Source of the DNA: Anaerolineales bacterium
GTDB lineage: Bacteria > Chloroflexota > Anaerolineae > Anaerolineales > Villigracilaceae
Direction: 5' to 3'
Length of the DNA stretch: 64,000 bases
Assembly (NCBI GenBank): GCA_046328875.1
Contig: JAXLVS010000001.1
Coordinates: forward strand, 2,513,315 to 2,577,314
In this document: positions 14,335 to 31,549 of the stretch, in pieces
Numbering within the stretch: the first letter of the stretch is position 1
How the letters are laid out: each line of letters opens with the position of its first letter
The notes under the pieces: generated by a model
The model's input: the letters and a program-made list of their open reading frames with translations, nothing else
Told to the model about the DNA's origin: nothing
Database searches by the model: none
Program-made: the position numbers and the translations under genes

Positions 14335-14359
14335 ATATTTCTTTGTACTGCAGAAATTT

Positions 14360-15778
14360 TTACTTGAAAATTCGATCAATTTCAAATTTTCCCACTTCCA
14401 CGATCAAATCATCACGAGAAATTTCATTTGCAAGCTTAACACCTGGCAAGCCAGTCAAGGGATCAATAATGGCAAAGCCCACTGTATATTTTCCATTTTC
14501 AAGCCCCACTATCGGTAATAAAAGCTCAGTAGAATATATCTGGTTCGGAAGTATTTTGCGTAAATCCATTTCCAATGGATATGAACCTACAACCATACCG
14601 TTTTTATCAAATAAATACACCATAGTCGGCCAGTCATAATAAAATGGGGCAATTCCATCATTTGAAAAACTAATCTTGATCTGCGCTTCTTTCCCAAACC
14701 TTACAGAGAGCGGCATTTCAACATGATGAACGTATAAACGGTATCCAATCGTAGAAAGTACCTGATCGATTCCGCCTTGTAAGTCTCCACTTAACTTGAC
14801 ATCATATGGACCACCTGGCCCAATAAAGGTTGTATGTGACTTACGCAATAGCTGAAGTGTTGTTTCAAGGTCAGTGCCATACATCTTTTCATTACTGACA
14901 TCAGGCGCTTGCTCACCACCTACAGGCGCCAATTCCCATCCACCAAGCATTGGCACAATCGTGTTATTTTCACCTGGCAAATACACGCCGCCATTTTCAA
15001 TCCAATGCAGCCAGCCATTCGTGTGTTCAACATTTCCAGTCATATCATTGAACAACCCTAAACTTAAGTCCCGCGCTATCGTAAATGGACGCCGCATTAG
15101 AAGATGTACACCAGGAAATGCATTTAGGTAATGATAAACATATATATTCCGAATATTCTCTGGAGGCAATTGCCTTAACTCAGAAGATATGTGCCATTCG
15201 CCCCAGTGTCCAAGACTCCCTAATTCTACAAAGGCAAAAAAGCCGTCTTTTCCATACCGATTACCCAGCACATTTATAGCTAGTTGATGGTACTTAATCA
15301 ATATTGGGTTTGAATAGTTGGGGCTAAAACCTTTTCCATATTGGTTATCATAAAACTCCCCATCCTTATTTATTTTTTCAAATAACCAATCAGGGATGTC
15401 CATATGAGCATCTCCTCTTGGAACATCAATAACAAATCGAAAAACGACCCTTTTCCCCTCCTGACGCCAACGAGCTAATTGTTGTCCCTTCTCAAATGTG
15501 TCGAAATCAAATATCCCTTCTTGAGGCTCAAAATCTCTCCATATTAAATCTGCATAGACAAGGGTGTGAGGCTGGTATATATCTTTTGAATTCGCCCACG
15601 GTGCCCACCCCATCAAAGGGTTTATGATGGGATGGGCGGCCGAATTAAAGTATAAAGTTTGTTTATTCAACTTGGTATATGAATTAAAAGCCAAAGGCGT
15701 TACCAATAAACACAAAATCATTAAGCAGAAAATAGCGCCAACAAAGGTGCGTTTTCTACCTACACCATTACGATTCAT
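14360..15778 (-). CDS. Membrane-anchored DUF4832-domain glycoside hydrolase-like protein
   Basis: N-terminal TM; WRDFEPQEGIFDF, VVFRF, GSLGHWGEWH, PVGGE, IGYRL; C-terminal Ig-like part with GIAPFYYDWP; likely start MNRNG at 15778. Confidence 0.7.
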   Translation of the reverse strand: MNRNGVGRKRTFVGAIFCLMILCLLVTPLAFNSYTKLNKQTLYFNSAAHPIINPLMGWAPWANSKDIYQPHTLVYADLIWRDFEPQEGIFDFDTFEKGQQLARWRQEGKRVVFRFVIDVPRGDAHMDIPDWLFEKINKDGEFYDNQYGKGFSPNYSNPILIKYHQLAINVLGNRYGKDGFFAFVELGSLGHWGEWHISSELRQLPPENIRNIYVYHYLNAFPGVHLLMRRPFTIARDLSLGLFNDMTGNVEHTNGWLHWIENGGVYLPGENNTIVPMLGGWELAPVGGEQAPDVSNEKMYGTDLETTLQLLRKSHTTFIGPGGPYDVKLSGDLQGGIDQVLSTIGYRLYVHHVEMPLSVRFGKEAQIKISFSNDGIAPFYYDWPTMVYLFDKNGMVVGSYPLEMDLRKILPNQIYSTELLLPIVGLENGKYTVGFAIIDPLTGLPGVKLANEISRDDLIVEVGKFEIDRIFK

Positions 15779-15794
15779 AATCAGTTTTTTTAAT

Positions 15795-16772
15795 TTATTT
15801 CCATGGTGCAATAATGGAGGGTGTTTCTGCATCAGCTGCATGTCCAAGATAAGGAAGGCCCCAAGCATCAGCCATGGTCCTGAGCAATGAATAATGGTTA
15901 TAAGGTGTGTCGTCTTCAAATCCTTTTTTTACTTCAGGAGATATAAAGACAACAGGTACACGACCACCTGCATCATCTTCGGGCAACCCACAGCAGCCTT
16001 CGTCACCATCCCCTTCTTCAAACATAAGCACGACAAGATAGTTGCTACTATCAGCGTCCAGAGCTGGAATAAGAACATCAAGCTGACGAGAAAGCCATTT
16101 ATCGGCAACACCTACGCTGCAATCATGTCCATCATTACAAATATTAGGAGTGATAAAAATGAAATTTGGAAGCGCATTGGCATCAATATCTGCTTTAAGC
16201 TCAGTGAATGGAACCACACTCTTTTCACACCGAGGTTTATCCAAGCGGATGGGGTCAAAATAAACAAAGGGATTATGTTTTTGTTCGTAGCTATCCTCGC
16301 TGCCAATATAACAAGGCTCTGGCATATCCTCCTGATATGTCTTCCAAGTCCGCCCACTGGCTTCTATCAAGTCTGGCAAACTGGTAGCATTAAAAAAACA
16401 ATCTGTGCAATTCTCAGTAATATCAAACGTTTCTCCACTCATCAAAGCAATGTAATTAGGAAGGCTTGGGTGTTTAACGCCATAATAATGTGTGAGTAAA
16501 GTGTATTGGTCTGCAAGCCCATTAAAAGTAGGCATAAGTGGACTAGATAGACTTTCATCAGATGCCCAGTTTTCGAAAATAATGATAACAATATGATCAA
16601 AATTTGGCACCTGTGCTTTAGACTCAGATGCCCCATCTACTGGTGGGGCATCGTTAGTTGGGGCAAGAGTTGTATCAGTAGGCAATGGAGCAGGTGTCGG
16701 AGTAACATTTGAGCCGCAAGCTGCAAGAACCAGCGCAAGAATCAACGTAAAAATTTTTTGAAAACGAGACAT
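15795..16772 (-). CDS. Lipoprotein phosphoesterase (alkaline-phosphatase superfamily, SapM/AcpA-like)
   Basis: Lipobox LVLAAC; HIVIIIFEN, HPSLPNYIALMSG (Ser nucleophile), KHNPF, NDGHD, HYSLLRT. Confidence 0.85.
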   Translation of the reverse strand: MSRFQKIFTLILALVLAACGSNVTPTPAPLPTDTTLAPTNDAPPVDGASESKAQVPNFDHIVIIIFENWASDESLSSPLMPTFNGLADQYTLLTHYYGVKHPSLPNYIALMSGETFDITENCTDCFFNATSLPDLIEASGRTWKTYQEDMPEPCYIGSEDSYEQKHNPFVYFDPIRLDKPRCEKSVVPFTELKADIDANALPNFIFITPNICNDGHDCSVGVADKWLSRQLDVLIPALDADSSNYLVVLMFEEGDGDEGCCGLPEDDAGGRVPVVFISPEVKKGFEDDTPYNHYSLLRTMADAWGLPYLGHAADAETPSIIAPWK

Positions 16773-16813
16773 GGTATCCTGAAATTAATCTGAACAAAAT
16801 TTAGAGAACATCA

Positions 16814-16855
16814 AAAAATCAAGCCGCTTTATTTAAATAAAGCGGCTTGATTTTT
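16814..16855. terminator. 42-bp perfect palindrome, probable terminator
   Basis: AAAAATCAAGCCGCTTTATTT|AAATAAAGCGGCTTGATTTTT, overlapping the DUF4956 stop codon. Confidence 0.75.
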
Positions 16856-17522
16856 AGCCATTATATTCTCCTGCATACTGAATCAGAGCTACATCAGTTA
16901 CTGCAGGTAAGTTTTTCAAAGTGTCCATAAAAGAAGTGTTGTTATTTTTTACAACAATCTCAACGGCAAGCTCGACGCTATCCTTGCGAACTGTTTTGGA
17001 TTTAATCTGAAACCGATTCGCACGTAAGATTCGGCGCACTTCATCTCCAATCGTTGCATCTTCACCAGAGTAATGAATAAGCAGAATAAATATTTCACGA
17101 GAGACGGATTTCCTGCCAATTGTCGCCAGCATAAGAATAACTATAACTGCACCCGTCAAAGCCAGATAATGAAGCTTAGCGCCGATAGTAATACCGCTAC
17201 CTACAGCCCAAAAAAGGAAAATAATATCTGCAGGATCCTTAATAGCAGTTCTATAACGGACAATACTCAGCGCACCAACCATGCCTAATGATAGTGCGAT
17301 ATTGGAGCTAATAGCCAATGTAATCATCGTAGTTAGAATCGTCAGGAGAGCCAGAGAAACTGAAAAAGCCTGGTTGTACACAACGCCACGAAACGACAAT
17401 TGGTATACATAATATATTAATAACCCGACGGCAAAAGATGCCAACAACGCTACAATGATGGGAGTCAATGTAGCCAACGCCCCCGAAAGATCAACCTGCA
17501 AAAACTTTAAGAGATTTTCCAT
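16854..17522 (-). CDS. DUF4956 family membrane protein
   Basis: SNIALSLGMVGALSIVRYRTAIKDP motif; about 5 hydrophobic helices plus a C-terminal ACT-like soluble domain. Confidence 0.85.
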   Translation of the reverse strand: MENLLKFLQVDLSGALATLTPIIVALLASFAVGLLIYYVYQLSFRGVVYNQAFSVSLALLTILTTMITLAISSNIALSLGMVGALSIVRYRTAIKDPADIIFLFWAVGSGITIGAKLHYLALTGAVIVILMLATIGRKSVSREIFILLIHYSGEDATIGDEVRRILRANRFQIKSKTVRKDSVELAVEIVVKNNNTSFMDTLKNLPAVTDVALIQYAGEYNG

Positions 17523-17546
17523 AATTTATTCCTTTCAAGATTTTTA

Positions 17547-18248
17547 TTAAACGTGAGAATATCTTCGGTGAATTGTCTTATCACAGCAAAGTATATATTT
17601 TGAAACCTCTGTATAATTAGCAGCATTGGAGGGCAATATTCTACGGATAATGCTTGGCAAAAATTCCGTAAATTTCACTTCCATCACTAGTAACCCTGGG
17701 TCCATTGTTTCAACCGTAGGCATATCTGCATCGAAAATATCAAAACCATCCACACCAGCTCGAATATTTTTATCAAATGTTATTCGAACATCCCCGGCTG
17801 CCATGACATACGGCTCGCGCTCATAATCAACCACAACCCTTGGGCGCATCAATTTAGAAACACATTCATGATAAAAAACTTTCAGCAAATCACTAGAATT
17901 CTTCAGAAGCACACTGTAGTCGCCCTGAATAACACCATATACTTGCTCTTTTGTCATCAATGATGATATTTTGTGGTTATATTGGCCAATCTTATTCTTT
18001 TTCTCAAAATTTATTCTTTTATCCGAATTGTTGTAAATTCGAATTCGATGTTTCGCTCTTTTTAGAATGCCAGCGTACTTATCCTCATATGAACTGTTGT
18101 TGTAATCATCAAAATACAAGCTGCGGACAGTATAAGATCCATCAGATGCCACATTAGCATCACTTGAAAGTACACTCTTTAATCTGGAACTGATCAAAGC
18201 GTGGTCTTGATAATTGATAATATATTTCATTTCATGTCGATATGCCAT
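17547..18248 (-). CDS. VTC-domain (polyphosphate polymerase-like, CYTH/TTM fold) protein
   Basis: RHEMKY, VRSLYFDD, KHRIRIY, FEKKNK, YEREPY, RITFD, MEVKF, SKY. Confidence 0.85.
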   Translation of the reverse strand: MAYRHEMKYIINYQDHALISSRLKSVLSSDANVASDGSYTVRSLYFDDYNNSSYEDKYAGILKRAKHRIRIYNNSDKRINFEKKNKIGQYNHKISSLMTKEQVYGVIQGDYSVLLKNSSDLLKVFYHECVSKLMRPRVVVDYEREPYVMAAGDVRITFDKNIRAGVDGFDIFDADMPTVETMDPGLLVMEVKFTEFLPSIIRRILPSNAANYTEVSKYILCCDKTIHRRYSHV

Positions 18249-18438
18249 CTTCAAAACCTGCCTATCTTAATCAAAGAATACTTTGCTTCATTAAGAAGTA
18301 AATATCCAACACCCAAATATATATTAAATCGGATTGGTATTCTACCAAATTCATTAAGCAGTTTCATCAAAGTATGTCCTTATAATTTCTTCACAAAGCT
18401 TTAAAGCTTATCATACATATACTCATACCAAGCTCAAT

Positions 18439-20241
18439 TTATTTTGAATTTTCCGTTACATCCCCATCAGGCGTAATAGTAAACAATTTCAGGCCGCCAT
18501 AAGGGTAACCATCAGCGTCTTCATAATCATCAAAGGCGTATTGAACTTTACCCGCTTCGTTGACAGCTAATACACGCCAAAAATAATTTCCCGGATCAAA
18601 AAGAGGGACATCAAGAGTTGTCACATTGACTGTGTCTGCTTGGTAAATAATACTAGTAAAACGTGGATCTCGACTCACTTCAAAATGGTATGTAATACTC
18701 TGAGGTGTGAAATTGTAAGCCTCCTCCCATTCAAACGTTAATACACCTGCAGAGACAACAGGAGTACCCAAATAGAAAGGCATCGGCATATTCAACGTTT
18801 CTAAATACAAATTATAGTTATTTTGAATCTCTGAAGGAATTAAAGAGTATGAGGAATTAAATTCAGCTTTGCTCCCAGGTAAATATCTTACGTCTGGAAG
18901 ACTAAATATAATCGGTTCGACGACAGGTCTGTAAATATCTAGTAAACTTTGAATCCTTTCGGGTGTTAATATTGTTATCAATTCATTCATCTTATCCGTT
19001 AATTTTTGACGATATACATCCGATCTCATAACGCGGTTATGAAGAATCCCACCCCAATAATTTGCAATCCCTACTTCCCAAGGTAAGTAAGGATACTCTC
19101 CAGCTTCCGTCCGCCTCTGGCGAAAAAGAGAATCATCATAATCCCACGGTAAAAAATACCATTTCTCACTATTTTGAGGGCTGTACAGAAAAAAGTTTTG
19201 ATTCTGAGTATCAACATTACCAACTAAAATATTAAACGCCATCCACGTAAAATAATTATCCGAATCAAAATATTTCTCAAACGATTGTTCAATAGGTATT
19301 TCTTCGTTGGTAATATCATCCAACATCTGAATAAGTTTAGAATGATCCCTACTTCCTTTAATCTCCAATCGATGTGAAAATTCTGCTTCATTGTAAAGTG
19401 GGTCATCTGCCATACGAATTTGATCAGCATAGCGATCGAACTCAAATGAGGTTGCTTTATATAATTGAGCATTACGATCAAGCAGATGATTTTTCAAGAA
19501 CGTTTTATTAACTTGCTCTACCTGAGTAAACAAGCCCAAGTCCACAAATTTTGTACTTACTGGAGTTGCAGTCTCGTCCTTTACATACAAATGCACAAAC
19601 TGTGTTCGAAGGCTAAGCATGTTAGGAACCAACTTCATCAAATCAAAGCTGAGTTTATTTCTTATGCGGGAGATATCGTAAATATGCTTATTAAGCGCAA
19701 ACGTAGTTTGTCCACGCCAATTACCTGCTCCTTCAAACAGTTCTATTTTGTAAGACTTTTGATGCTTAGAAGAAGAAGAGGAAGCTCCACGAATTTGAAT
19801 GGTTCCATTTGGCACCACAGCCCCATACCCTAATTCACCTGGCAGCGGTCCACTCTCATCTCCAAACTGAACAATTACCTCTGCTTCGCCAACAATATCA
19901 TTTGCTGAACGAGAACCATTGGTCCACTTACTAAAAGCGTTTACCTCTGTCCAAGTGTAATTAGTATTCTCCAACAAATTCCCTTTTCGAGCCGTAATAT
20001 ATACAACTACCACTGAACCAGGGTCATCATACTGAAATACGTTCTTATTATCCTGAAGCGGCAGGTCATTAATATTAACAATCGGAGCAAATGCAACAGG
20101 AGTTGTGGCAATAGGGACAGGAGTAATCGGGGTGGCAGCTTTATCTTTAACAATTTCCGATGTAGTGACAAGGCTGCCTAAAGAAACAAACAGCAAAAAT
20201 AACACCAGCATGCCTAATGCTATTTTTGATATTCGTATCAT
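18439..20241 (-). CDS. cotH: CotH-family kinase 2, N-terminal membrane anchor, C-terminal beta-sandwich
   Basis: IQIRGASS, KSYKIEL, NKLSFDL, GLFTQVE, NILVGNVD, LPWDYD. Confidence 0.85.
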   Translation of the reverse strand: MIRISKIALGMLVLFLLFVSLGSLVTTSEIVKDKAATPITPVPIATTPVAFAPIVNINDLPLQDNKNVFQYDDPGSVVVVYITARKGNLLENTNYTWTEVNAFSKWTNGSRSANDIVGEAEVIVQFGDESGPLPGELGYGAVVPNGTIQIRGASSSSSKHQKSYKIELFEGAGNWRGQTTFALNKHIYDISRIRNKLSFDLMKLVPNMLSLRTQFVHLYVKDETATPVSTKFVDLGLFTQVEQVNKTFLKNHLLDRNAQLYKATSFEFDRYADQIRMADDPLYNEAEFSHRLEIKGSRDHSKLIQMLDDITNEEIPIEQSFEKYFDSDNYFTWMAFNILVGNVDTQNQNFFLYSPQNSEKWYFLPWDYDDSLFRQRRTEAGEYPYLPWEVGIANYWGGILHNRVMRSDVYRQKLTDKMNELITILTPERIQSLLDIYRPVVEPIIFSLPDVRYLPGSKAEFNSSYSLIPSEIQNNYNLYLETLNMPMPFYLGTPVVSAGVLTFEWEEAYNFTPQSITYHFEVSRDPRFTSIIYQADTVNVTTLDVPLFDPGNYFWRVLAVNEAGKVQYAFDDYEDADGYPYGGLKLFTITPDGDVTENSK

Positions 20242-22022
20242 TCTAGCACCTCACCATCTGGAGTTACGTAAAATCGTTTTACGCCTGGGTGAGATCGAGA
20301 GTCGGTATCATAATATTTATCAAACGGATATTGTGAATATCCGGAAGTATTAGTCGCTACTACGCCCCAGAAATATTCTCCAGGACTTAACATATCAACC
20401 TGAATATTTGTCGTATTTGTTAAAACTTGATCAAATACAACATCATTAAATGCCCAATCCTTCGCTATTTGAAAATGGTAGGAAATATCCTCCCCATTAA
20501 AATCATGGGATTCGTCCCAAGCGAATGATAATTTTCCATCGCTAAGTGTCGGCTCTCCAAGATAAAATGGCATGGGCTTTTTCAACGATTCAACATATAA
20601 ATTGTAATTAGTCTCGACATCGCCTGGTATTAAATTTGCTATCAGATGGGATTGTGAGGGATCTGAAGGCATATAATAATTATCAGGTAACACCTGCGTA
20701 TATTGATCAACCACCGGCTGGTAAAGCTTAATTAAATTTTCTATCCGTTGAGGCGTTAATATTTCCTTCACTTCAAGGACTTTTTCATCCAGGGTCTTTC
20801 TATATTTTTCGACGCTCAAAACCCTTCTATGTAAAACCACTCCCCAGTAATTTGACACCCCGTTTTCCCACGGTGCAATACTATATGAAACAAGGTTGGG
20901 TTGATTCTGTAATGGGAACGCATCATCGTAATCCCATGGAATAAAATACCACTTAGTTCCATTCTTAGGGCTATAAAGAAAATAATTCTGCGACTGTGTA
21001 TCGATATTACCAACAAGGATATTAAAAGCCATCCAAGTAAAATAGTTATCTGAATTAAAATATTTTTCGAAAGTCTGCTCTATTGGTATGTCATAATTAT
21101 TGACGTCATCCAAAAGTTGAATAAGCTTAGCATGATCCTTATTCCCCTTGATCTCTAATCGTAAAGAAAAAGAGTCTGCGTCATAAAGTGAATCAGTTAC
21201 CAAACGTATCTGATCAGCATATCGATAAAACTCAAAATCATTCGCTTTATAAAATTGGCCATCACGGTCCAGATGGCGGCTTTCAAGGAACCGCTTATTC
21301 GGTTGCTCTACCTGAGTAAACAAACCATAATCCACAAATTCAGTTTGTACTGGATCAGAAGTCTCATCTTTTACATAAACATGAACAAACTGGGTGCGAA
21401 GACTGATCATGTCAGGAATATCTTTCAACAAGTCAAAGCTAAGTTTATTTCTAAATCTTGAGCCATCATATATATGCTTATTAAGATTGATCGTAGATTG
21501 ACCGCGCCACGTACCCGCATTATTAAACAGCTCTACTTTGTAAGATTTCTGTGGCGCAAGTGAAGTAGTTGCACCCCGAATCTGTATAGTACCATTTGGT
21601 GTTAAAGCACCGTACCCCACTTCCCCTGGCAATGGACCAGTCTCATTTCCGAATTGTACAATCGCCTCTGCTTTCCCTACCTCAACAACCTTATCTTCCA
21701 ACTCCCAATACTTAGTAAAGTCGTTGATCTGTTGCCATGTGTAATCCGTCTTATCAGAAGAGTTCCCTTTTCTTATTGTTAAATACATTGTCACCACTGA
21801 ACCAGGGCTATCATTTTGGTACACAACCGGATTGTCCTGAAACGGAAGGTCATCAATATTCCCAGCAGTTTCAACAGGTGCCCCGTATAAGGGTGTGGCG
21901 ATCAACGTAGCAACCGTCAAGTTCTTATCAATAGCTGCACCAGAAGGCAAACTATTGACTGAAACATATATCAGAAATAATGCAGCAAGAATTATTATAG
22001 TTATACGAAAAATACGTCTCAT
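20238..22022 (-). CDS. cotH: CotH-family kinase 1, N-terminal membrane anchor, C-terminal beta-sandwich
   Basis: IQIRGATT, KSYKVEL, NKLSFDL, GLFTQVE, NILVGNID, IPWDYD; 4-nt overlap with the paralogue. Confidence 0.85.
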   Translation of the reverse strand: MRRIFRITIIILAALFLIYVSVNSLPSGAAIDKNLTVATLIATPLYGAPVETAGNIDDLPFQDNPVVYQNDSPGSVVTMYLTIRKGNSSDKTDYTWQQINDFTKYWELEDKVVEVGKAEAIVQFGNETGPLPGEVGYGALTPNGTIQIRGATTSLAPQKSYKVELFNNAGTWRGQSTINLNKHIYDGSRFRNKLSFDLLKDIPDMISLRTQFVHVYVKDETSDPVQTEFVDYGLFTQVEQPNKRFLESRHLDRDGQFYKANDFEFYRYADQIRLVTDSLYDADSFSLRLEIKGNKDHAKLIQLLDDVNNYDIPIEQTFEKYFNSDNYFTWMAFNILVGNIDTQSQNYFLYSPKNGTKWYFIPWDYDDAFPLQNQPNLVSYSIAPWENGVSNYWGVVLHRRVLSVEKYRKTLDEKVLEVKEILTPQRIENLIKLYQPVVDQYTQVLPDNYYMPSDPSQSHLIANLIPGDVETNYNLYVESLKKPMPFYLGEPTLSDGKLSFAWDESHDFNGEDISYHFQIAKDWAFNDVVFDQVLTNTTNIQVDMLSPGEYFWGVVATNTSGYSQYPFDKYYDTDSRSHPGVKRFYVTPDGEVLE

Positions 22023-22052
22023 TCAAGGTACCTCATTGAAAATAAAATCCAT

Positions 22053-23489: not shown

Positions 23490-24892
23490 TGGGAAATTGC
23501 CCTTTCATATACGTTTAAATACTGATCGATCATATTGTTGATATCAAAATACTTCTTAACTCTTTTTTGTCCTGCCTCACCCATCTGCTTTCTTTTTTCT
23601 TCATTCAAGCACATCTCAAGCAAGGCCTGATATAGTTTCGATTGATGCATGGGTGGAACACAAATTCCAGCATGCCCAAAATTATCACCAACATCACCTT
23701 CAATAAGATCACGACAACTACCAACATCTGTCGTAACTACAGGTCGCTTCGCCGCCATGGATTCCAAGACTGCAAAAGGCTGACCTTCTGAAATACTCGT
23801 TAAAATCGTAAAATCTATTTTCTCAAGATAGCTCGTTGTCCTGACTGTGCCTGGAATGATAATGTCTTTAATTTGCAAGTACTCAATTAAATCTAAACAT
23901 TCTTGGTGATATTCTTCATCATCCACGCCACCAATAATGTGCAAACGAGCATTCTCGACATCTTGTTTTAATCGTGAGAAGGTATAGATAAGGGTTTTGA
24001 GATCTTTGATTGGAGCAAACCGTGCAATAATCGCAATATCTATCCAACCATCTTTCGGTTTATCAGGAATAGAAATAAAAGATTCAAGGTGAAGGCCATT
24101 TCCAACCACATCACACTTGTCTTCTGGACAGCCCAGCTCCTGCTGCACAAGGCTTGCACGGCGATACAAACTGGTAACTCTATGAGCTCGCGTATAGGCA
24201 AGCCGTGCAAACATAAAAAACATAGAGATCCACAAATCTTTAAAATATGACTTCACCCAATCAGACCGTAAAATCTCCTCTTCTCTTTCTCTTGTGTAAA
24301 TACCATGCTCTGTTAAAACAAAAGGTTTATTGTATTTCATAGAGGCTAAAGCAGCTAAAACACCTGCGTAGCCAGTTGAAGGGCTATGGTAAAGGTCTGC
24401 CTCGGGCATAGGCTGGCCAATTAGATAAAGCAAAGGTAAAAACATTGAACGAATTGTCCAGAAAAGGTCTTTAAAACCAGCAAAAGGATAATCATCTCTT
24501 GTGTAGTCTTTTAGGATTTTTAAAAACTCTTCGCTCAAGAAAAATTCCACTGGCTTATTTGATTGCAAGTTGAAACTATCAAGTATCACTCGCCAATCCG
24601 GATCGCCACTTCGGATCATTTTGGACATCGCTTCTCTTTCCGCCGCGGTGAATTTTAAATTTGGATTTTTATTAATACGCAAGTTAAATGAAGCACTTAA
24701 AAAGTTTTCATGTACAGTAACCACGTTTGAGGGGAGCTCATAAGCAAACTTTCCTGCCTGACCTTCTTGATCCGTTATCGTCCACAAAACGAATTCATGA
24801 TCTGGCAAAGCGCGGATATATCCATCAACCCACGTGGAAACTCCGCCACGAACATACGGATAACTACCTTCAAGAATAAAACAAATCTTCAA
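23465..24892 (-). CDS. pelF: Pel GT4 glycosyltransferase
   Basis: EGSYPYVRGGVSTW, TGYAG, TEHGIYTRERE, IKDLKT, SISEGQPFAVLE (EX7E). Confidence 0.95.
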   Translation of the reverse strand: MKICFILEGSYPYVRGGVSTWVDGYIRALPDHEFVLWTITDQEGQAGKFAYELPSNVVTVHENFLSASFNLRINKNPNLKFTAAEREAMSKMIRSGDPDWRVILDSFNLQSNKPVEFFLSEEFLKILKDYTRDDYPFAGFKDLFWTIRSMFLPLLYLIGQPMPEADLYHSPSTGYAGVLAALASMKYNKPFVLTEHGIYTREREEEILRSDWVKSYFKDLWISMFFMFARLAYTRAHRVTSLYRRASLVQQELGCPEDKCDVVGNGLHLESFISIPDKPKDGWIDIAIIARFAPIKDLKTLIYTFSRLKQDVENARLHIIGGVDDEEYHQECLDLIEYLQIKDIIIPGTVRTTSYLEKIDFTILTSISEGQPFAVLESMAAKRPVVTTDVGSCRDLIEGDVGDNFGHAGICVPPMHQSKLYQALLEMCLNEEKRKQMGEAGQKRVKKYFDINNMIDQYLNVYERAISQWQESDLS

Positions 24893-24895
24893 CTC

Positions 24896-26746
24896 TTACT
24901 CCTCAAAAAATATGGTAACGCTCGACTTAGTAGCTTGAACCAAATAAAGATCTGTAGAAATTTGAGTAATAACGCCGCCTTCAATTGACGAAGGATTTTT
25001 TGTAGAACGTAACATCAACCAGGCTTCGTCATAAAAATTACCGAAGGTTATTTCGAGGTTCCCGTTATTATCATGTGTTTCCATCGCAAGACGCGCAAAA
25101 CGTTGGACAGCCATCGCACCTTCTCGCCCGGTCATGTTTCGCAAGCCAGGTGCAGAATCCTTAAGCCATTGTAAAAATCTATCATATTGATCCTTAAGGT
25201 CTGGCCAACCTTTCTCAGCACCACGATCAGGATCAAGAAGATCATCAGGATGGAGAAAGTGGGTATTAACATAGTGCATACGAAGCTCATTTATAGCTGC
25301 CCACTGCATATATTCATCATCATAAATATTGTATCCAGAAATAACCCGTGGAAACTCAATAATTCCATCTGATGCCTCAGTAAATTCCTGCACATACTCC
25401 TGCGCATCTTCATCTGGGATGTAAATACTTGCAATATATTTTAAGTCAGGTATGACCAAAGGAAGCCAACGACGAGCGTCCGAACAAAGAATGTTCGATG
25501 GCGGCATATATCCAAGGAATTTATAATTAGGGAATACAGAATTTCCATAAGTAAAGACTTCACTCAAAGAAAGTTGTTCTGATTCTGTGTCTGGCCAAGA
25601 AGGGTAACCCTTTGAAGCATTTACATCATTGTCGTCAGTACAGAATGGAACATGATTATGCCCATGGAAAATAATTTCACCGCCGGCCGCAAGCAGGGAT
25701 CTACCAAAATATTTATGAGTTTCAGGTTCTAACTGTTTCACCAACGGAGGCGTAACTACCTGTGTATATGTCTCTATCATCCCCCCTGTATACCTAATAT
25801 CATACTTGGTAGCTAGCTTCTCCATATCTGGCCACCAAACTTCTCTATAAAAGGTCGCGGTGTCCATATCATAGAATCGTGTTATGTAATCATCCGATCC
25901 CTCAGGCAAAGGAGCAGGAAAGTCGTCAATATAAAAAATAGAGCTATTGATAACCGGATAAACAAAAACATCACTCAAAAGACTATAAGATGCAGCAAGT
26001 ACGCCTCTGGCAGCCTTATCTCCAAACTGATCAGAGTTAATAAATACAATACGTCCCTTACCATTATCGCACTGCCAGAGAAGGGGAATCTTGTTGCCGT
26101 CGGCACTTGTCAAATGAACTGTACAAGCATCGTTCAATTCGACGGGGTAACTGGTACCATTAATAAACTGCAAACCAAGCTTCGTGCCTTTCGCCCCAGG
26201 GAACAAGTCTGTGACAAACTCGACTCCCTTTGCTGATGCTAGTTCACCAGCCGAGCTTACAATACCCAACTTTCGATAATTTAACGTGAAGGTGCTTGAT
26301 GGGTCTGGGCGAATAGCAAATAATACTTTTCCACCGCTATCTACCCAATTCATGATGGAAGCTGTTTGTGATTCCAAATTAGATATATCCAACACTGCAA
26401 AAACTACAGTTTTGTACTTTGACAAATCGATCTTGTTGGGTGCGTCCACATCATAAACGTCATACTTAACCCGCATACTATCCAAGACCGCAAATACATC
26501 ATCGACCAAAATCCCCATATATTTATCAGTATTTTGTGAGTTTATTATCACCAAAGCGTCAACCGGCTTATCAGGAAAAAAGTTCTTCACTTCAATAATA
26601 TCATCCGGTAAAAATTGTTTTGATTGGTAATATTTAGAACTGACTTCATAAGTTATACCAGTCCTCTGAATAAACAGAGTTCCAGCCAACGCAACCAACA
26701 AAACTAATGGCAAAAGAATAAGAGAAAAGCTATAGCTGTGCTTCAT
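24896..26746 (-). CDS. pelA: DUF2194 polysaccharide deacetylase (monoderm PelA deacetylase-like)
   Basis: N-terminal TM; YIDDFPAP, HGHNH, YMPPSN, FLHPDD (CE4-like motifs); TAATG coupling to the upstream gene at 26746. Confidence 0.8.
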   Translation of the reverse strand: MKHSYSFSLILLPLVLLVALAGTLFIQRTGITYEVSSKYYQSKQFLPDDIIEVKNFFPDKPVDALVIINSQNTDKYMGILVDDVFAVLDSMRVKYDVYDVDAPNKIDLSKYKTVVFAVLDISNLESQTASIMNWVDSGGKVLFAIRPDPSSTFTLNYRKLGIVSSAGELASAKGVEFVTDLFPGAKGTKLGLQFINGTSYPVELNDACTVHLTSADGNKIPLLWQCDNGKGRIVFINSDQFGDKAARGVLAASYSLLSDVFVYPVINSSIFYIDDFPAPLPEGSDDYITRFYDMDTATFYREVWWPDMEKLATKYDIRYTGGMIETYTQVVTPPLVKQLEPETHKYFGRSLLAAGGEIIFHGHNHVPFCTDDNDVNASKGYPSWPDTESEQLSLSEVFTYGNSVFPNYKFLGYMPPSNILCSDARRWLPLVIPDLKYIASIYIPDEDAQEYVQEFTEASDGIIEFPRVISGYNIYDDEYMQWAAINELRMHYVNTHFLHPDDLLDPDRGAEKGWPDLKDQYDRFLQWLKDSAPGLRNMTGREGAMAVQRFARLAMETHDNNGNLEITFGNFYDEAWLMLRSTKNPSSIEGGVITQISTDLYLVQATKSSVTIFFEE

Positions 26747-27660
26747 TACACTATCTCCTCTGTCCAAATCTTGACCTGTTCTTTTCCATCTCTAGTCCAG
26801 TTGATCTTTTGATTTCTCATGCTCGAAATAATCTCCTGCAATTTATTACCGTCCCGACCATTAACACACACGCGAATAGACTCGATCCAGGAGCGCTCAT
26901 CCGTTGGCCAATTTAGTATCAAATAATCCCCAATTTCAAATGCAGAGTTAAATTCTGCAAGTTCAATACAATTCCGTAATTTCTTTATTATTATATTTCT
27001 GTCGTTTTTCGCTTTTTCAAGCTTTTGATCTAGAACCTTGGAGTAAACAATGCGAAGATTTTTCAATAAATGTAATTCCAAGAGGCCGCTTTCTATATAT
27101 TTCTCTAACGTATCGATATACTCATCTAATGTGCTTGAATCATCAGGATTGTTTTCCACTGCAACTGCCAGCTTTTGAATGGACAACTGAAAATCTTTTT
27201 GCGCCTTTGAAATCGTGGTCGTAGCATAATGTGAAGTTTCTACATCGTCGTTGTACTTTGCTATATTCAAAATATCCAAGTATTTAAGAGGGTCAGTATA
27301 CAGAGTTTCAAGCATGAATCTTCGACGCACTTTAACATCGTTAATTAAAATTGCCTCTTCCAATGGCACAATGTCTCCATTCTCATGAAAACTTTTCAAG
27401 GTCACCCACAAAATATCGTCTCCCAAAGTAAGGGGCTCAAGTTCTACAGGCTTGGATGCTTGCTTATTCCAAATGTTCAATGCCTCGATCACTATAGCCG
27501 TAACAGGACCAAATATGGGGACAAAAAATATAAGAAGAATTTGCTCTTTTCGAAGGTGAGACTTTCCAGAATATATAAATACAGAATATCCTATGGTGAG
27601 TAGGATATGAAAACTTAGCACAATCAATTCAATTTGAATTTTCACCAATCTCTTCTCCAA
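26746..27660 (-). CDS. pelE: PelE-like protein (two N-terminal TMs, helical/TPR-like C-terminus)
   Basis: Position between pelD and pelA; VPLEEAIL, ETSHYA; the start may instead be TTG/GTG at 27648/27645. Confidence 0.65.
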   Translation of the reverse strand: MEKRLVKIQIELIVLSFHILLTIGYSVFIYSGKSHLRKEQILLIFFVPIFGPVTAIVIEALNIWNKQASKPVELEPLTLGDDILWVTLKSFHENGDIVPLEEAILINDVKVRRRFMLETLYTDPLKYLDILNIAKYNDDVETSHYATTTISKAQKDFQLSIQKLAVAVENNPDDSSTLDEYIDTLEKYIESGLLELHLLKNLRIVYSKVLDQKLEKAKNDRNIIIKKLRNCIELAEFNSAFEIGDYLILNWPTDERSWIESIRVCVNGRDGNKLQEIISSMRNQKINWTRDGKEQVKIWTEEIV

Positions 27661-27686
27661 AAAGTTACAAAAAGCAATTCCATTAA

Positions 27687-29861
27687 TTACTCTAGCGGAA
27701 TCTCGTAGGCATCTATCAACCTGCTCTTAACACCCAACTTATCTAAACGTTCGACCACTTCCAAAGAAGCTTGTTTATCAGCTTGCGATAACAAGATATA
27801 GGAAATACCATTTTTTAACATTCCGACAACGTCTGCCGAGCGTATTCCAAGTGAAATTTTGGAATATTTTTTCTGAACATCAACTTCAGATTCTTGAAGC
27901 ATAATTACCTGAAAGTCAGATATCTTATTTTTCTTCATTTCAAGGCGAACTCTTAATGTGTCAATAAAAGCATTATGATTCAATATTCTAGTGGCAGGCA
28001 GGTACATTCTTTCATAATTCGCGTCTAAGAACAAAGTCGCCCGCACCAAAGAGGCTTCGATCATTCCGCAAATCACTTTAAATAGGTTGTAATAATATGT
28101 GGAATATTGCTCAAAATCAGCTGACCAGATCACAACCATTGCCACAGGCACATTAAATGGATAAGAGTTATTTAGGACCGGGGCGATATATGCAGGATAA
28201 TTTTCTAGCAGGGCTGCGTTTTGGAATATTTTTCCCTGCTCAATACTTTCAAGTGCTTCAGGGTAATCAGATAACTTTAACGACTTCGCAACAGCTACAT
28301 TCATCTCTGCAGAATTCACCTCAAGCCTTGCGAAGGCCCGGTTACTATCCAACGAATAGATTGCAATATTTTTATTATCCATCAGCTCTTCAAGGATATT
28401 TAGCGCTCTGAAGTAAACTGCGTGTTCTTGTAGTTCATCAAGTTCACGCGTAATAGTAAATATTTTTCCAAAACTATCACGGTACCCAATCAAACGTTCA
28501 CGAAACTCATCTTTAAGATCTCTGACTTCGTTAAAGACTTCATACAAAAAGGAATATTTCTCCAAAACGAGATCGTATTGTTTCTTACCGTACAGAATAT
28601 TATTTTCAGTCTTATCGTGGTTATAGCCCGTGATCAAGCCTATAGCAAAATAAAGCACAAAAGGAAACCAGTTTCCTACATTATAGACAAGCAACTTCCA
28701 GTCCACACCTAAACCTAGCCATGTATAAAGCACAAAAATACTTACAAGCACAGATGCATATAGACCGAATTGAAGGCCATAAATGGATCCCATAATCACA
28801 ACATACACCAAACGAAAATCCACATATTGAAACTGAATAAGAGTGCCAGTTAATTGGCTTAAATACATGGCAGCTAAGCCGCCCAAAACTAATTCTGTCC
28901 ATTTTAGAAAAGTTGGGTGTTCAGACAGTCGATCAAACAATCTAAAAATTGCAGACTTTTTCTTTACTAACCCTTTTGGAGTTGTATCAACAAAGTCTTC
29001 CAGTTCAGTAGCAAGGTCATGAACCTCATACCAATCAAACAATCTCTTTGCAGCTGCTACAGTTACTGGTTTTGTAGAAGCAGCCTTTTTATCTACATCA
29101 TCAGCATAAGTTACATTTTCATAATGCTTGCTTAGTAATCCAACAAGTTCGGAATACTTTATCAATTTAGAAGATGACAAATTTACAACCAAAGACTCAG
29201 TTGAATATTCATCATCAATAGCGCGCTTTATAAAATCGATAACATCTTCTGCATGTACAAAGCTGCAGAGAGTATCTGGGGAGCCCGGAAGTAGGATCTC
29301 CCCTTTCTGATTTCCATCCCTTATCAGCCGATAAAACAAACCAGCCTTCTCGTCGAGTCCGTACACATATGGCAGGCGCAATATGGTGAGATTCATATCG
29401 AATTCATCTCGATAAATCCTGCAATATCGCTCACCGACAGACAAAGTAAAGCCATTGATCGAAGAAGGCTGTGGCATGGTTTCTTCAAGCGTGTCTGGCG
29501 CATCGCCATAGACTTCAGTAGACGAAACGAAAAAGAATCTGCGTATCCCGCCCTTTTTACAAAGCTCTAAAGTATTTCTCAACCCATCAAGTTGCTGTCC
29601 AACATGAAATTCATCTTCAGAACCGTCAAGCAACTCTTCTCTAGTGGAAAGGTAGAGAACAATATCGAATTTATAGGAAGAAAGCGCATCACGGAAAATC
29701 TTTTCAGATGGATTTATTGAATGCAAAACTATACTATCCACCTTAATGTCCAAATCGCTCGCATTATATGAAGCCAACACAACTTTGTTCTTCTCTTTAA
29801 TAAATTCTTTAGCCAGAGGTACAGCAAGAGAAGAAAGATTTCCCGTTATCAGTATATTCAC
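27687..29861 (-). CDS. pelD: Degenerate SDR epimerase domain fused to PelD-like receptor (TMs, GAF, degenerate GGDEF)
   Basis: SDR scaffold (ILITG, FVSSTEVYG, ILRLPYVYG) with altered motifs; 4 TMs; FRERLIGYRDSFGKI coiled coil; GAF; C-terminal RSAD (RxxD I-site). Confidence 0.8.
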   Translation of the reverse strand: MNILITGNLSSLAVPLAKEFIKEKNKVVLASYNASDLDIKVDSIVLHSINPSEKIFRDALSSYKFDIVLYLSTREELLDGSEDEFHVGQQLDGLRNTLELCKKGGIRRFFFVSSTEVYGDAPDTLEETMPQPSSINGFTLSVGERYCRIYRDEFDMNLTILRLPYVYGLDEKAGLFYRLIRDGNQKGEILLPGSPDTLCSFVHAEDVIDFIKRAIDDEYSTESLVVNLSSSKLIKYSELVGLLSKHYENVTYADDVDKKAASTKPVTVAAAKRLFDWYEVHDLATELEDFVDTTPKGLVKKKSAIFRLFDRLSEHPTFLKWTELVLGGLAAMYLSQLTGTLIQFQYVDFRLVYVVIMGSIYGLQFGLYASVLVSIFVLYTWLGLGVDWKLLVYNVGNWFPFVLYFAIGLITGYNHDKTENNILYGKKQYDLVLEKYSFLYEVFNEVRDLKDEFRERLIGYRDSFGKIFTITRELDELQEHAVYFRALNILEELMDNKNIAIYSLDSNRAFARLEVNSAEMNVAVAKSLKLSDYPEALESIEQGKIFQNAALLENYPAYIAPVLNNSYPFNVPVAMVVIWSADFEQYSTYYYNLFKVICGMIEASLVRATLFLDANYERMYLPATRILNHNAFIDTLRVRLEMKKNKISDFQVIMLQESEVDVQKKYSKISLGIRSADVVGMLKNGISYILLSQADKQASLEVVERLDKLGVKSRLIDAYEIPLE

Positions 29862-30293
29862 AACAAATCCTTCCTTTTCCTAATAATAGAAGCAATAAAA
29901 TTTCGGCGAAATTAATCGTATAGCTGACAAGTAGTATTGCAGCCAAAAATATTCAAAGATGAGAGAAGCAACTTTTAATAAAAAATATTACAATCACAAA
30001 ATCGTAACACTTAAAGCTGGCTCTCTCAGAAAAAAGTATTTGTAAAGCAAGTGAATGTAATTAAAACAGCTATTGTAAATAATTGCACAACTAATAATAG
30101 GCTAAATATACAACCAAGAAATAAAAATATCAATAATTTTTGTATTTTAACATGAAAGAGACAGATTGGCTCCACTTTACAGGTGCATTTTTTCATTCCT
30201 GGAACATTAAGTCGCTAAAAAACCAGTAAAAGGTTCGTTCTTTTTGTAAGAACTCCTTCAAAAACTCCGTCCAAACCGCTAGGAGACGAAAAA

Positions 30294-31505: not shown

Positions 31506-31549
31506 AATACCCGAACTGACATAAAACAATTCAATTTAGGAGAACTCTC

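Follow-up and report, generated by a model that had tools for sequence, protein, structure and literature searches.

A monoderm-type Pel operon with cotH, VTC and DUF4956 accessory genes on a low-GC island of an Anaerolineales bacterium

The window, a 64,000-nucleotide stretch of the genome of an Anaerolineales bacterium, contains eleven closely packed minus-strand genes (29861-14360) in the order pelD-pelE-pelA_DA-pelF-pelG-cotH1-cotH2-VTC-DUF4956-PF04185 phosphoesterase-DUF4832. Open reading frames and profile searches agreed with the original prediction, in which eleven co-oriented genes had each been given a family, and a family match was returned for every gene except pelE, which lacks a Pfam model and was assigned by its slot and identity. 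The operon is enclosed by a low-GC island recognized by base composition (14000..32600), where GC content is 0.389 within the cluster, compared with 0.47-0.48 for flanking DNA, and GC3 of 0.31-0.40 for cluster genes against 0.53-0.57 for flank genes. The chromosomal site of the Chloroflexota cluster varies from genome to genome, and the operon was acquired horizontally by its Chloroflexota host. The locus is almost certainly a Pel synthase operon of monoderm type (pelD of class III, pelE, pelA_DA, pelF and pelG) with the published 'accessory group 2' architecture, which reached its host, a wastewater bacterium of the Anaerolineales (Chloroflexota), by way of a low-GC island.

The class III pelD (27687..29861, minus strand as are all genes below; class definition from PMC7890745) encodes a degenerate SDR domain, a transmembrane region and a C-terminal domain with an RxxD motif. 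Its N-terminal Epimerase/SDR domain (PF01370, E=2e-19, residues 3-217) carries TGNLSSLA instead of the GxxGxxG cofactor motif, and alignment to 6ZL6 showed both the catalytic Tyr and Lys to be substituted; a DUF4118 match was weak. The C-terminal motif reads IRSAD, with the Arg present in 57/57 and the Asp in 56/57 PelD proteins from loci carrying both pel and the cotH-VTC-DUF4956 triad. The product of pelE (26746..27660), 304 aa with two N-terminal hydrophobic segments, occupies the same slot as PelE elsewhere and is 26-61% identical to the same-slot gene of other pel loci, while the profile search matched it to no Pfam family. The deacetylase-type pelA_DA (24896..26746, start corrected to 26746) encodes a DUF2194 protein (PF09960, E=4.9e-146) with an N-terminal membrane anchor. 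The GT4 glycosyltransferase gene pelF (23465..24892) was identified by the NCBIfam equivalog NF038011 (324 bits vs a cutoff of 100) and combines DUF3492 with Glycos_transf_1. The exporter-like PelG (22053..23489; PF16933, E=1.9e-117) has 12 hydrophobic segments in keeping with a 12-TM protein. Gene families and their order thus bear out the monoderm pelDEAFG synthase layout that had been proposed.

Downstream of the core lie two paralogous genes for membrane-anchored CotH-family kinases, cotH1 (20238..22022; PF08757, E=4.8e-64), with an N-terminal anchor at residues 4-22 and a C-terminal beta-rich domain, and cotH2 (18439..20241; PF08757, E=1e-65), whose product is 55% identical to CotH1. Alignment of CotH1 with B. 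cereus CotH (5JD9), in which the catalytic residues are D228/D251, placed both catalytic Asp 23 residues apart; CotH2 likewise has both, and shares the motifs GNVDT...PWDYDD. An N-terminal anchor was found in 31/35 CotH proteins of three subtypes. CotH had been described beforehand as an extracytoplasmic kinase. This does not hold for the founding CotH, since it works on the spore coat within the mother cell, but the CotH proteins of the locus are predicted to be ecto-enzymes because of their N-terminal anchors. CotH resembles the glycan kinases Fam20B and POMK, which are of the same broad fold class and phosphorylate sugars; the CotH enzymes characterized so far are exclusively Ser/Thr protein kinases.

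The VTC-domain protein (17547..18248, start corrected to 18248), a soluble candidate polyphosphate polymerase of 233 aa, matched PF09359 with E=1.1e-37 and, in a profile comparison, Vtc4 (3G3Q) with E=3.9e-9. All residues aligning with the catalytic tunnel of Vtc4 are retained, with the invariant K8, R68, R70, K84, E190, S216 and K217 aligned to Vtc4 K200, R264, R266, K281, E426, S457 and K458. No TM segment was found in this protein or in any of 34 VTC proteins. The adjacent DUF4956 gene (16854..17522; PF16316, E=7e-11) encodes a membrane protein with 3-5 TM helices and a C-terminal domain whose secondary structure is beta-alpha-beta-beta-alpha-beta in a low-confidence AF2 model. Topology prediction gave 3-4 TM segments for DUF4956. 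No similarity of this protein to the channel helices of Vtc1/Vtc4 or to any solved structure was detected; its homologs are labelled YhiD/MgtC-like in some sources, and published work compares it with MgtC, a protein that does not form a channel. According to predicted topology the group straddles the membrane, with VTC inside, DUF4956 in the membrane, and CotH and the phosphoesterase outside.

The PF04185 phosphoesterase (15795..16772; E=5.5e-34; 325 aa) is a lipoprotein with the lipobox LAAC and belongs to the SapM/AcpA/PLC type of the alkaline-phosphatase superfamily; homologs are labelled phosphatidylinositol-3-phosphatase, acid phosphatase or phospholipase C in several sources. A fold search with a model of pLDDT 67 ranked non-specific phospholipases C on top (E=6e-9, TM about 0.45-0.5). 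Orthologs occupy the same slot in three loci (L001, L121 and L123), and in a further one (L002) that slot holds a PF04185 protein only 25% identical. Recruitment of the family to this slot thus involved two divergent forms, whereas paralogs at other places in Anaerolineales genomes stand alone. A phosphatase had been proposed as part of a Pel-phosphate system, but it is not a general component, being present in 2/69 surveyed pel-linked loci and a few metagenomic Anaerolineales contigs. The last gene (14360..15778) encodes a DUF4832 protein (PF16116, E=2.7e-19) with an N-terminal anchor, a predicted TIM-barrel glycoside hydrolase domain and a beta-sandwich. Its start is most likely the ATG at 15778 rather than the TTG at 15919; the resulting length of 472 aa is that of its homologs. 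Its anticipated role as a hydrolase accords with the S. intermedius counterpart SIR_1591, described in PMC12345266 as an active hydrolase that disperses Pel aggregates.

The three overlapping or abutting junctions expected earlier were all read in the sequence: TAATG at 26746 joining the pelE stop to the pelA_DA start, a 25-nt overlap of pelF and pelG (23465-23489), and an ATGA overlap of cotH1 and cotH2 (20238-20241). A 30-nt spacer with an internal GAGG separates pelG from cotH1. The longest gap, 184 nt between cotH2 and VTC (18255..18438), holds weak promoter-like sites. Terminator-like hairpins were found in none of the operon's intergenic gaps, this one included. Such a hairpin, 7 pairs (5 G-C) followed by a T-rich tail, lies 3' of the last gene (14248..14264, minus strand). 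The best sigma-70-like match 5' of pelD is TTGATA-17-TATATT (30105..30133, minus strand), a consensus match only; the region as a whole contains fewer promoter-like sites than its shuffles, and promoters of Chloroflexota may depart from the sigma-70 consensus. Sludge metatranscriptomes contain fragments of the locus, and no transcript piece in them spans the pelG-cotH1 or cotH2-VTC junction.

This arrangement of genes is not due to chance, being shared by over 60 species-level genomes from three phyla (Chloroflexota, Bacillota and Actinomycetota). A neighbourhood survey confirmed the suspected linkage of cotH-VTC-DUF4956 to pelFG: PelF, PelG and CotH were present in 66/66 pel-clade loci, defined by a VTC at least 44% identical to that of the window and an upstream flank of at least 8 kb. 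DUF4956 lies directly 3' of VTC in 111/111 loci, and CotH falls inside the flank in 95/99. The triad is also found at C. perfringens NELoc-2 and within non-pel glycan loci (GT2, GT1, Bac_transf, Polysacc_synt, GtrA, epimerases) of Lachnospiraceae and others, some adjoining BspA-type LRR surface proteins; its occurrence in non-pel glycan loci contradicts a published claim on cotH-VTC-DUF4956.

The architecture had been thought uncharacterized, but in the loci of Gram-positive bacteria described by Whitfield et al. 2020 (PMC7112168) pelDEA_DAFG already adjoins genes for CotH, a poly-P polymerase, DUF4956 and DUF4832, and Raju et al. 2025 supplied the genetics. Upon deletion of the S. intermedius accessory genes, none of the four was needed for Pel synthesis, and loss of cotH or DUF4956 lowered aggregation and altered Pel levels (Raju et al. 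2025). An anti-(GalNAc)3 antibody still binds the S. intermedius polymer, and PelA_H still disperses it. In the abstract of PMC12345266, only the deletions of SIR_1592 (DUF4956) and SIR_1594 (CotH) are named as reducing aggregation, that of VTC not being among them. What is new here is the Anaerolineales host, the low-GC island, the duplicated cotH, the recruited SapM/PLC-like secreted phosphoesterase, found in just a few Anaerolineales, the triad in non-pel glycan loci, and the distribution of the module over both sides of the membrane with every known catalytic residue of CotH and VTC intact.

By homology with characterized systems, PelF would polymerize UDP-GalNAc, and PelG, PelE and PelD would carry the chain over the single membrane, with transport under c-di-GMP control probably exerted through the PelD RxxD site. 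Outside, PelA_DA would partially de-N-acetylate the chain into a cationic GalNAc/GalN polymer, which the anchored DUF4832 hydrolase may trim or release. The soluble tunnel enzyme VTC could convert cytoplasmic ATP into polyphosphate or another energy-rich phosphate species; DUF4956, the constant partner and the only integral membrane component of the module, may couple this product to the outer face, where the two anchored CotH ecto-kinases would phosphorylate exported polymer or matrix. Phosphorylation would place negative charge on a cationic glycan, tuning cohesion and cell association, and in the Anaerolineales subclade the lipoprotein phosphoesterase, on that outer side too, may counteract this by removing or recycling phosphate. 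The module would be portable, sister versions being plugged into other surface-glycan pathways.

As a whole, a Pel operon with a membrane-spanning phosphate-transfer module is the best explanation, held with somewhat less than even confidence; that cotH-VTC-DUF4956 forms one such module acting on exported polymer or matrix is a doubtful, if possible, reading of the gene content. It is favored by the family assignments, the retained catalytic residues, the topology, VTC-DUF4956 adjacency, pel linkage, the non-pel glycan loci, phosphoesterase recruitment, tight junctions, transcript fragments, the cotH/DUF4956 deletion phenotypes and SIR_1591 activity. Against it count the Ser/Thr protein-kinase activity of characterized CotH enzymes, the dispensability of the S. 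intermedius accessory genes for a Pel still recognized by anti-(GalNAc)3, a DUF4956 with no detectable similarity to Vtc1/Vtc4 channel helices and likened to the non-channel MgtC, and the lack of transcript pieces across the pelG-cotH1 and cotH2-VTC junctions. A Pel phosphorylated or decorated with polyP outside the membrane is plausible because of the topology and portability of the module, but is weakened because no significant change of aggregation is reported for the VTC deletion in S. intermedius; since that deletion does not phenocopy those of cotH and DUF4956 there, VTC is argued against as the obligatory donor source.

In a reading much like that of Whitfield 2020 and Raju 2025, CotH might instead be an ecto or secreted Ser/Thr kinase of surface or matrix proteins, exposed Pel machinery (PelA_DA), neighbouring cells or host proteins, with VTC and DUF4956 serving phosphate/polyP homeostasis and Pel left unphosphorylated. 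The known protein-kinase activity of CotH enzymes, an FN3-like C-terminal domain typical of protein interaction, the BspA-type neighbours of some non-pel triads and the quantitative, modulator-like phenotypes in S. intermedius point that way. However, no candidate protein substrate is conserved and co-encoded across pel-, GT2- and Wzx/Wzy-type loci, where glycan-synthesis genes are the only constant neighbours; furthermore, CotH is predicted to be outside the membrane and so cannot stand in for c-di-GMP in controlling the cytoplasmic PelD domains, and the window's PelD retains its RxxD site. This account is possible, though on the unlikely side.

In Pseudomonas, cationic Pel is cross-linked by eDNA. 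By comparison, the module product could be extracellular polyP, made by VTC and released with the aid of DUF4956, whose negative charge would cross-link the cationic, partly deacetylated Pel, with the phosphoesterase recycling it and CotH separate. Intact VTC catalytic residues, the invariable pairing of VTC with a membrane protein, the cationic nature of Pel (PMC9135694) and PPK-independent extracellular polyP in some Gram-positive bacteria are consistent with this, but it leaves the near-constant CotH unexplained, cationic polymers would not be expected from several of the host glycan loci, extracellular polyP is produced in the B. cereus group although no VTC homolog is present, and VTC is absent from the deletions reported to reduce aggregation in S. 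intermedius; it is judged improbable. That the accessory genes are mere passengers on the same mobile island, unconnected to the polysaccharide, is most improbable: the low-GC cluster, its shifting chromosomal site and the dispensability of these genes for Pel synthesis would fit, but the order kept over three phyla, the translationally coupled junctions, the independent embedding of the triad in other glycan operons and the two Pel-related mutant phenotypes already reported, of cotH and DUF4956, would not.

Several known systems share parts of this machinery. In the yeast VTC complex, polyP synthesis by Vtc4 is coupled to passage of the chain across a membrane; the tunnel domain with all its aligned catalytic residues is common to both, as is an obligatory membrane partner, here the next gene. 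The locus VTC, a candidate polymerase, differs in lacking an SPX domain and fused transmembrane helices, and its partner DUF4956 lacks detectable similarity to the Vtc1/Vtc4 helices. A PF08757 kinase domain in which both catalytic Asp are present is common to the Bacillus spore-coat CotH and the locus CotH, but the latter adds a membrane anchor at its N terminus and a beta-sandwich at its C terminus, and genes of its type sit in glycan operons of non-sporulating bacteria. M. tuberculosis SapM, Francisella AcpA and bacterial and fungal non-specific phospholipases C share family (PF04185) and fold with the phosphoesterase, which in contrast is a short (325 aa) lipoprotein within an exopolysaccharide operon. 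In phosphoethanolamine cellulose (BcsG/BcsEFG; mentioned in PMC7890745), operon accessory genes likewise add a phosphate-containing group to a synthase-dependent exopolysaccharide on the outside of the membrane, by analogy only, since BcsG is a lipid-donor transferase and not a kinase/polyP system. B. cereus ATCC 10987 has the same five-gene monoderm core, pelDEA_DAFG without pelB or pelC, under c-di-GMP control through PelD; according to the literature, its PelD is of class I without an SDR domain, it has no cotH, VTC, DUF4956 or DUF4832, and it divergently encodes a PelA_H-type hydrolase and galE. The S. intermedius operon, pelDEA_DAFG with SIR_1594-1591, has the same families in the same order from the degenerate-SDR pelD to DUF4832. 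The PelD of the locus, of class III, retains a degenerate GGDEF-like end bearing RxxD that is missing from the class IV PelD of S. intermedius; the locus also has two cotH genes against one, adds the PF04185 phosphoesterase between DUF4956 and DUF4832, and resides on a low-GC island in a Chloroflexota host.

Eleven open reading frames share one orientation between 29861 and 14360 on the minus strand, in the order pelD, pelE, pelA_DA, pelF, pelG, cotH1, cotH2, VTC, DUF4956, phosphoesterase and DUF4832, and Pfam and NCBIfam scans confirmed the gene identities assigned in the original prediction. PelF, a GT4 protein, matches the NCBIfam equivalog NF038011 with 324 bits against a cutoff of 100 and carries PF11997 (DUF3492, N-terminal) and PF00534; PelG, encoded by the adjoining gene, matches PF16933 (E=1.9e-117) and has twelve hydrophobic segments, while PelA_DA is covered over its full length by PF09960 (DUF2194, E=4.9e-146). 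No family model exists for pelE, whose product has two N-terminal hydrophobic segments and matches the same-slot gene of other pel loci. The genes downstream of pelG include two for CotH proteins (PF08757, E=5e-64 and 1e-65), one for a VTC-domain protein (PF09359, E=1e-37) and one for a phosphoesterase (PF04185, E=5.5e-34). No pelB or pelC outer-membrane export gene was found among the eleven cluster genes, all of which are accounted for, or in the scanned flanks, where TetR and beta-oxidation genes border the cluster at one end and a thioredoxin-reductase-like gene at the other. The presence of PelF, PelG and a DUF2194-type PelA_DA, with no pelB or pelC, agrees with a predicted monoderm Pel system.

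The tight gene junctions that had been described earlier also hold on reading of the sequence: pelE and pelA_DA meet in TAATG, pelF and pelG overlap by 25 nt, and cotH1 and cotH2 are joined by ATGA. The gap between pelG and cotH1 is 30 nt (22023-22052) with GAGG inside. The longest gap, 184 nt between cotH2 and VTC (18255-18438), contains two weak promoter-like matches and no terminator-like hairpin, and since it is the only long spacer of the operon, VTC, DUF4956, phosphoesterase and DUF4832 may be expressed as a separate sub-operon too. Of the promoter-like sites, the best is found upstream of pelD; 3' of the last gene there is a terminator-like hairpin. Starts were revised from homolog lengths for VTC (18248), pelA_DA (26746) and DUF4832 (15778); a 519-aa DUF4832 ORF from a TTG at 15919 was ruled out on account of a 125-nt overlap with the phosphoesterase gene and because homologs measure 462-477 aa. 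In two sludge metatranscriptomes, low-depth contigs with 95-100% identity, for which DNA carry-over is possible, cover fragments of eight of the eleven genes (pelD, pelA, pelF, pelG, cotH1, cotH2, phosphoesterase and DUF4832). No transcript piece across pelG-cotH1 or cotH2-VTC was found in these two low-depth data sets, and the operon structure is predicted from gene spacing alone.

PelD is homologous to the PelD of other pel loci, with a weak DUF4118 match. Its SDR domain is degenerate, as judged from an altered cofactor motif (TGNLSSLA) and replacement of the catalytic Tyr and Lys, and its C-terminal RxxD is invariant among 57 distinct PelD proteins of loci with both pel and the cotH-VTC-DUF4956 triad. 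Neither Pfam nor PDB sequence search detected the GAF and GGDEF folds; among PDB sequences only SDR enzymes were matched, P. aeruginosa PelD being out of sequence reach. A degenerate SDR domain together with RxxD points to the class III architecture among the PelD classes I-IV defined by Whitfield and Howell 2021 (PMC7890745), and this predicted architecture suggests that c-di-GMP control is retained. About three quarters of Gram-positive PelD proteins are SDR-extended, a kind that comes with accessory genes (PMC7890745).

The linkage of the triad to pel was surveyed in two scans of one-genome-per-species contigs, from which 116 distinct loci were collected; a VTC relative was present in at least 594 genomes. 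The second scan, with a VTC profile, added mainly near-identical Collinsella loci, so that counts rose with diversity unchanged. Where the flank was long enough, the gene directly after VTC was DUF4956 in 111 of 111 loci, and 95 of 99 loci had a CotH gene in the flank. Wherever VTC was at least 44% identical to that of the window and at least 8 kb of upstream sequence was available (66 loci), PelF, PelG and CotH were all present. Since these 66 loci span Chloroflexota, Bacillota and Actinomycetota, the predicted association of cotH-VTC-DUF4956 with pelFG exceeds chance. Most pel-linked loci carry a single cotH, with 2-3 copies in Anaerolineales and a few Lachnospiraceae; a fourth CotH interval counted in one locus (L013) probably reflects frameshift-split genes. 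In an Anaerolineales contig (L120, 8225-10001), the second cotH is broken into two ORFs, of 365 and 186 aa, and has the look of a decaying paralog, which suggests that extra CotH copies are partly redundant. A DUF4832 gene was seen in 16 of 69 pel-linked loci; the Collinsella pel and triad loci L047-L117 have none within flank, which recalls the bifidobacterial variant with a DGC/PDE gene in its place.

With more distant VTC relatives, 14 of 16 loci were without pel, and 12 of the 14 keep CotH beside VTC-DUF4956. Such triads lie in L014, L015, L017, L018, L019 and L026 (about 250-18050 each), in L034/L035, and in L021, L023, L025, L028, L033, L036 and L039. In Lachnospiraceae the triad is part of a co-oriented locus with GT2, GtrA, phosphomutase, nucleotidyltransferase and a priming Bac_transf; other non-pel triads sit in a Wzx/Wzy-type locus. 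Among 115 neighbours in 12 non-pel loci, the commonest after CotH were GT2, GT1, epimerases, Polysacc_synt, DegT and Bac_transf. The non-pel triad loci, either with GT2, GtrA, LPG_synthase_TM, nucleotidyltransferase and Bac_transf or of the Wzx/Wzy type, carry two further CotH subtypes. In the C. perfringens locus NELoc-2, a chitin-synthase-like gene has VTC, CotH and a gene for a 222-aa membrane protein nearby. Because triads are embedded in glycan loci without pel, the triad is a portable module of surface-glycan loci that is not exclusive to Pel. This conflicts with Raju et al. (PMC12345266), who state that the three genes are arranged in this way in pel loci only.

CotH1 and CotH2 are 55% identical, and both align to B. 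cereus CotH (5JD9) with two Asp kept, 23 residues apart; mutation of these two Asp, D228 and D251, inactivates B. subtilis CotH. The VTC protein alone found no match in the PDB with phmmer, and a profile of 16 bacterial sequences was needed to match the Vtc4 catalytic domain 3G3Q (E=3.9e-9). The invariant VTC residues K8, R68, R70, K84, E190, S216 and K217 align with Vtc4 K200, R264, R266, K281, E426, S457 and K458 in the numbering offset of entry 8I6V, which we take to be residues of the catalytic tunnel. Compared with the eukaryotic Vtc1/2/3/4 complex, the window protein has 233 aa and lacks SPX, any other domain and any TM segment; it may work like VTC without being a member of the eukaryotic complex type. 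A DUF4956 profile matched no PDB sequence, neither VTC subunits nor MgtC. An AF2 model of DUF4956 built from 35 homologs was dropped from fold search at pLDDT 55, and secondary structure alone was used. The literature searched yielded no work on the function of bacterial VTC-domain proteins or of DUF4956.

An N-terminal hydrophobic anchor is predicted in 31 of 35 CotH proteins of three subtypes, as well as on PelA_DA and DUF4832, while the phosphoesterase carries a lipobox; hydrophobic segments number 3-4 in DUF4956 and are present in none of 34 VTC proteins. These anchors, segments and lipobox place VTC in the cytoplasm, DUF4956 in the membrane, and CotH and the phosphoesterase at the outer face, a predicted division of the module over the membrane. 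The DUF4832 gene occupies the same slot as in published operons, and its product matches PF16116 (E=2.7e-19) at residues 287-492 of the 519-aa ORF, or about 240-445 counted from the preferred ATG. By analogy with SIR_1591 of Streptococcus intermedius, for which alone activity has been shown, it is a predicted Pel hydrolase of TIM-barrel plus beta-sandwich form; a search against PDB sequences gave no match.

The phosphoesterase belongs to the PF04185 (AcpA/SapM/PLC) family of the alkaline-phosphatase superfamily, and Foldseek with its AF2 model (pLDDT 67) ranks non-specific phospholipases C first (E=6e-9). E67, N68, S103, H216, D217 and H293 are invariant in 40 homologs and are consistent with an active site; sources label such homologs as PI3P phosphatase, acid phosphatase or PLC. 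The gene is present in 2 of 69 surveyed pel-linked loci and in some Anaerolineales contigs from metagenomes. Copies with 64% identity or more always lie between DUF4956 and DUF4832, copies at 59-63% are stand-alone genes in an unrelated conserved neighbourhood, and a second PF04185 protein, 25% identical, fills the same slot in another Chloroflexota MAG. This restricted occurrence, fixed slot, stand-alone paralogs and divergent second protein argue for lineage-specific recruitment of a secreted phosphoesterase into the module and the predicted CotH compartment, possibly on two occasions. The stand-alone paralogs in two Anaerolineales contigs (L124, 8001-8990; L125, 8001-8987) lie near endonuclease V, a cNMP-binding histidine kinase and URO-D, and a similar cNMP-binding histidine kinase is encoded at 651-1871 of the window. 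A contig binned as 'Flavobacteriales' (L003) has the same cotH-cotH-VTC-DUF4956-phosphoesterase sequence as the Chloroflexota MAG L002, probably through a binning error.

The closest VTC and DUF4956 homologs, 60-91% identical, are found in Anaerolineales and Chloroflexota MAGs, in two of which TetR and beta-oxidation genes with 76-90% identity flank the same cluster, in the same place and in synteny. These neighbours, at 7189-13876 directly downstream of the cluster and syntenic in L001 and L002, comprise a thiolase, a fused 3-hydroxyacyl-CoA dehydrogenase/enoyl-CoA hydratase, two acyl-CoA dehydrogenases and TetR. The sequence occurs in DNA runs from wastewater, bioreactor-sludge and activated-sludge metagenomes and in one groundwater metagenome run. 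GC is 0.389 in the cluster against 0.47-0.48 in the flanks, and GC3 is 0.31-0.40 against 0.53-0.57; a GC deficit of 8-14 points recurs in every Chloroflexota locus examined and is absent from Bacillota and Actinomycetota loci. In other Anaerolineales the cluster also lies between different neighbours. The deficit in these Chloroflexota loci and the differing neighbours argue that the Chloroflexota pel cluster is an island acquired from a low-GC donor. There are no tRNA genes in the window, no convincing att repeat was found, and no integrase domain was present in the subset of flanking ORFs scanned. An exact 14-nt direct repeat (ATAAAATATCAAAG) at 14055-14068 and 33152-33165 brackets the low-GC stretch, about one such pair being expected by chance. 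The low-GC stretch runs past pelD (29862-32600) over a glutaredoxin-fused thioredoxin-reductase-like gene (30294-31505, plus strand) and an ORF without family (31878-32594), both of which may belong to the same acquired island. Farther away, at 39551-49078 on the minus strand, an ATP-grasp ligase-like gene, a SIS-domain protein, GH3, two ABC permeases, a solute-binding protein and a PIG-L-type deacetylase look like a locus for amino-sugar/oligosaccharide uptake and processing.

By homology, PelF would polymerise GalNAc, PelG, PelE and PelD would export the chain, PelA_DA would deacetylate the polymer and DUF4832 would cleave it. For the genes added to this core, a membrane-spanning phosphotransfer module is favoured, in which VTC would act in the cytoplasm to produce polyP or an activated phosphate, DUF4956 would link this product to the outer face, CotH ecto-kinases would phosphorylate the exported polymer or matrix with a VTC-derived or another donor, and the phosphoesterase would oppose or recycle the phosphorylation. 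Arguments for phosphotransfer are the compartment split, the intact catalytic residues, the invariable VTC-DUF4956 pairing with a near-constant CotH, and the need of an enzyme anchored outside a monoderm cell for a donor there. Phosphorylation of the glycan itself by the module, and hence phospho-Pel here, is possible yet doubtful, since no Pel is known to contain phosphate and no similarity was detected between DUF4956 and the channel subunits of VTC. The version in which VTC and DUF4956 form a polyP synthase-exporter that feeds an extracellular phosphoryl donor to glycan-phosphorylating CotH ecto-kinases is unlikely.

Characterised CotH enzymes are protein kinases, which speaks against glycan phosphorylation, and CotH may tentatively be read as an ecto protein kinase; several kinds of glycan operons host the triad with no conserved protein substrate, which argues for the phosphotransfer reading. 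Exported polyP might instead act as an ionic cross-linker of cationic Pel, which is improbable. That the accessory genes are mere passengers is hardly credible. Raju et al. (bioRxiv 2024; mBio 2025; PMC12345266) deleted the four accessory genes in S. intermedius and found none required for Pel synthesis, with loss of SIR_1594 (CotH) or SIR_1592 (DUF4956) lowering aggregation and altering Pel levels. In their work the DUF4832 protein showed hydrolase activity and dispersed Pel aggregates, and the hypotheses they put forward were protein phosphorylation and phosphate metabolism. The deletions for which they report a significant drop in aggregation do not include that of VTC, which to that extent does not phenocopy the cotH and DUF4956 deletions, a further point against glycan phosphorylation. 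The favoured phosphotransfer module, if true, would reveal a new chemistry by which glycans are modified outside the cell and would give the eukaryotic VTC polyP machinery a bacterial counterpart, with relevance to the unexplained extracellular polyP of Gram-positive bacteria. The polyP-donor version, if true, would mean a portable and previously unrecognised addition of phosphate outside the cell to monoderm surface polysaccharides (Pel here, other polymers in sister loci), reversible in some Anaerolineales through a dedicated secreted phosphoesterase. If phosphotransfer is false, the locus simply adds another example to an operon type already described.

Pel ranks among the most widespread polysaccharides of biofilms, and filamentous Anaerolineales abound in activated sludge, in which the formation of flocs is affected by the chemistry of the matrix. 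Phospho-Pel is better tested in cultivable carriers than in the uncultured window organism. Cultured strains with pel and the triad include Faecalibacterium prausnitzii UT1 (L044) and several Collinsella aerofaciens isolates (L055, L063, L077, L112, L117), while Butyrivibrio fibrisolvens 16/4 (L028) has the triad without pel; all are candidate experimental systems. The question of the cotH-VTC-DUF4956 role raised in PMC12345266 is sharpened by the membrane-spanning layout with intact CotH and VTC catalytic residues, by portability between unrelated glycan pathways and by phosphoesterase recruitment in one lineage.

The observation behind the original prediction and the linkage it proposed stand, and its interpretation is supported in part, but its belief that the arrangement was unexplored does not, since the arrangement was published in 2020 and its genetics in 2025. 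Whitfield et al. 2020 (PMC7112168) described, from streptococci and clostridia, a 'second accessory gene group' that is contiguous with pelDEA_DAFG and consists of cotH, a poly-phosphate polymerase gene, DUF4956 and DUF4832; bifidobacteria have a variant, and the group correlates with an N-terminal degenerate epimerase domain on PelD. The window has this group, with cotH, VTC, DUF4956 and DUF4832 contiguous downstream of pelG and an SDR-extended PelD. No paper combining pelF, pelG and Chloroflexi was found in the literature searched. To the published type the present analysis adds the portability of the triad, its predicted across-membrane layout with intact active sites, the recruitment of the phosphoesterase and the island nature of the Chloroflexota cluster. 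Compared with that operon type, the locus as predicted here differs in its new phylum, its duplicated cotH and its added phosphoesterase.
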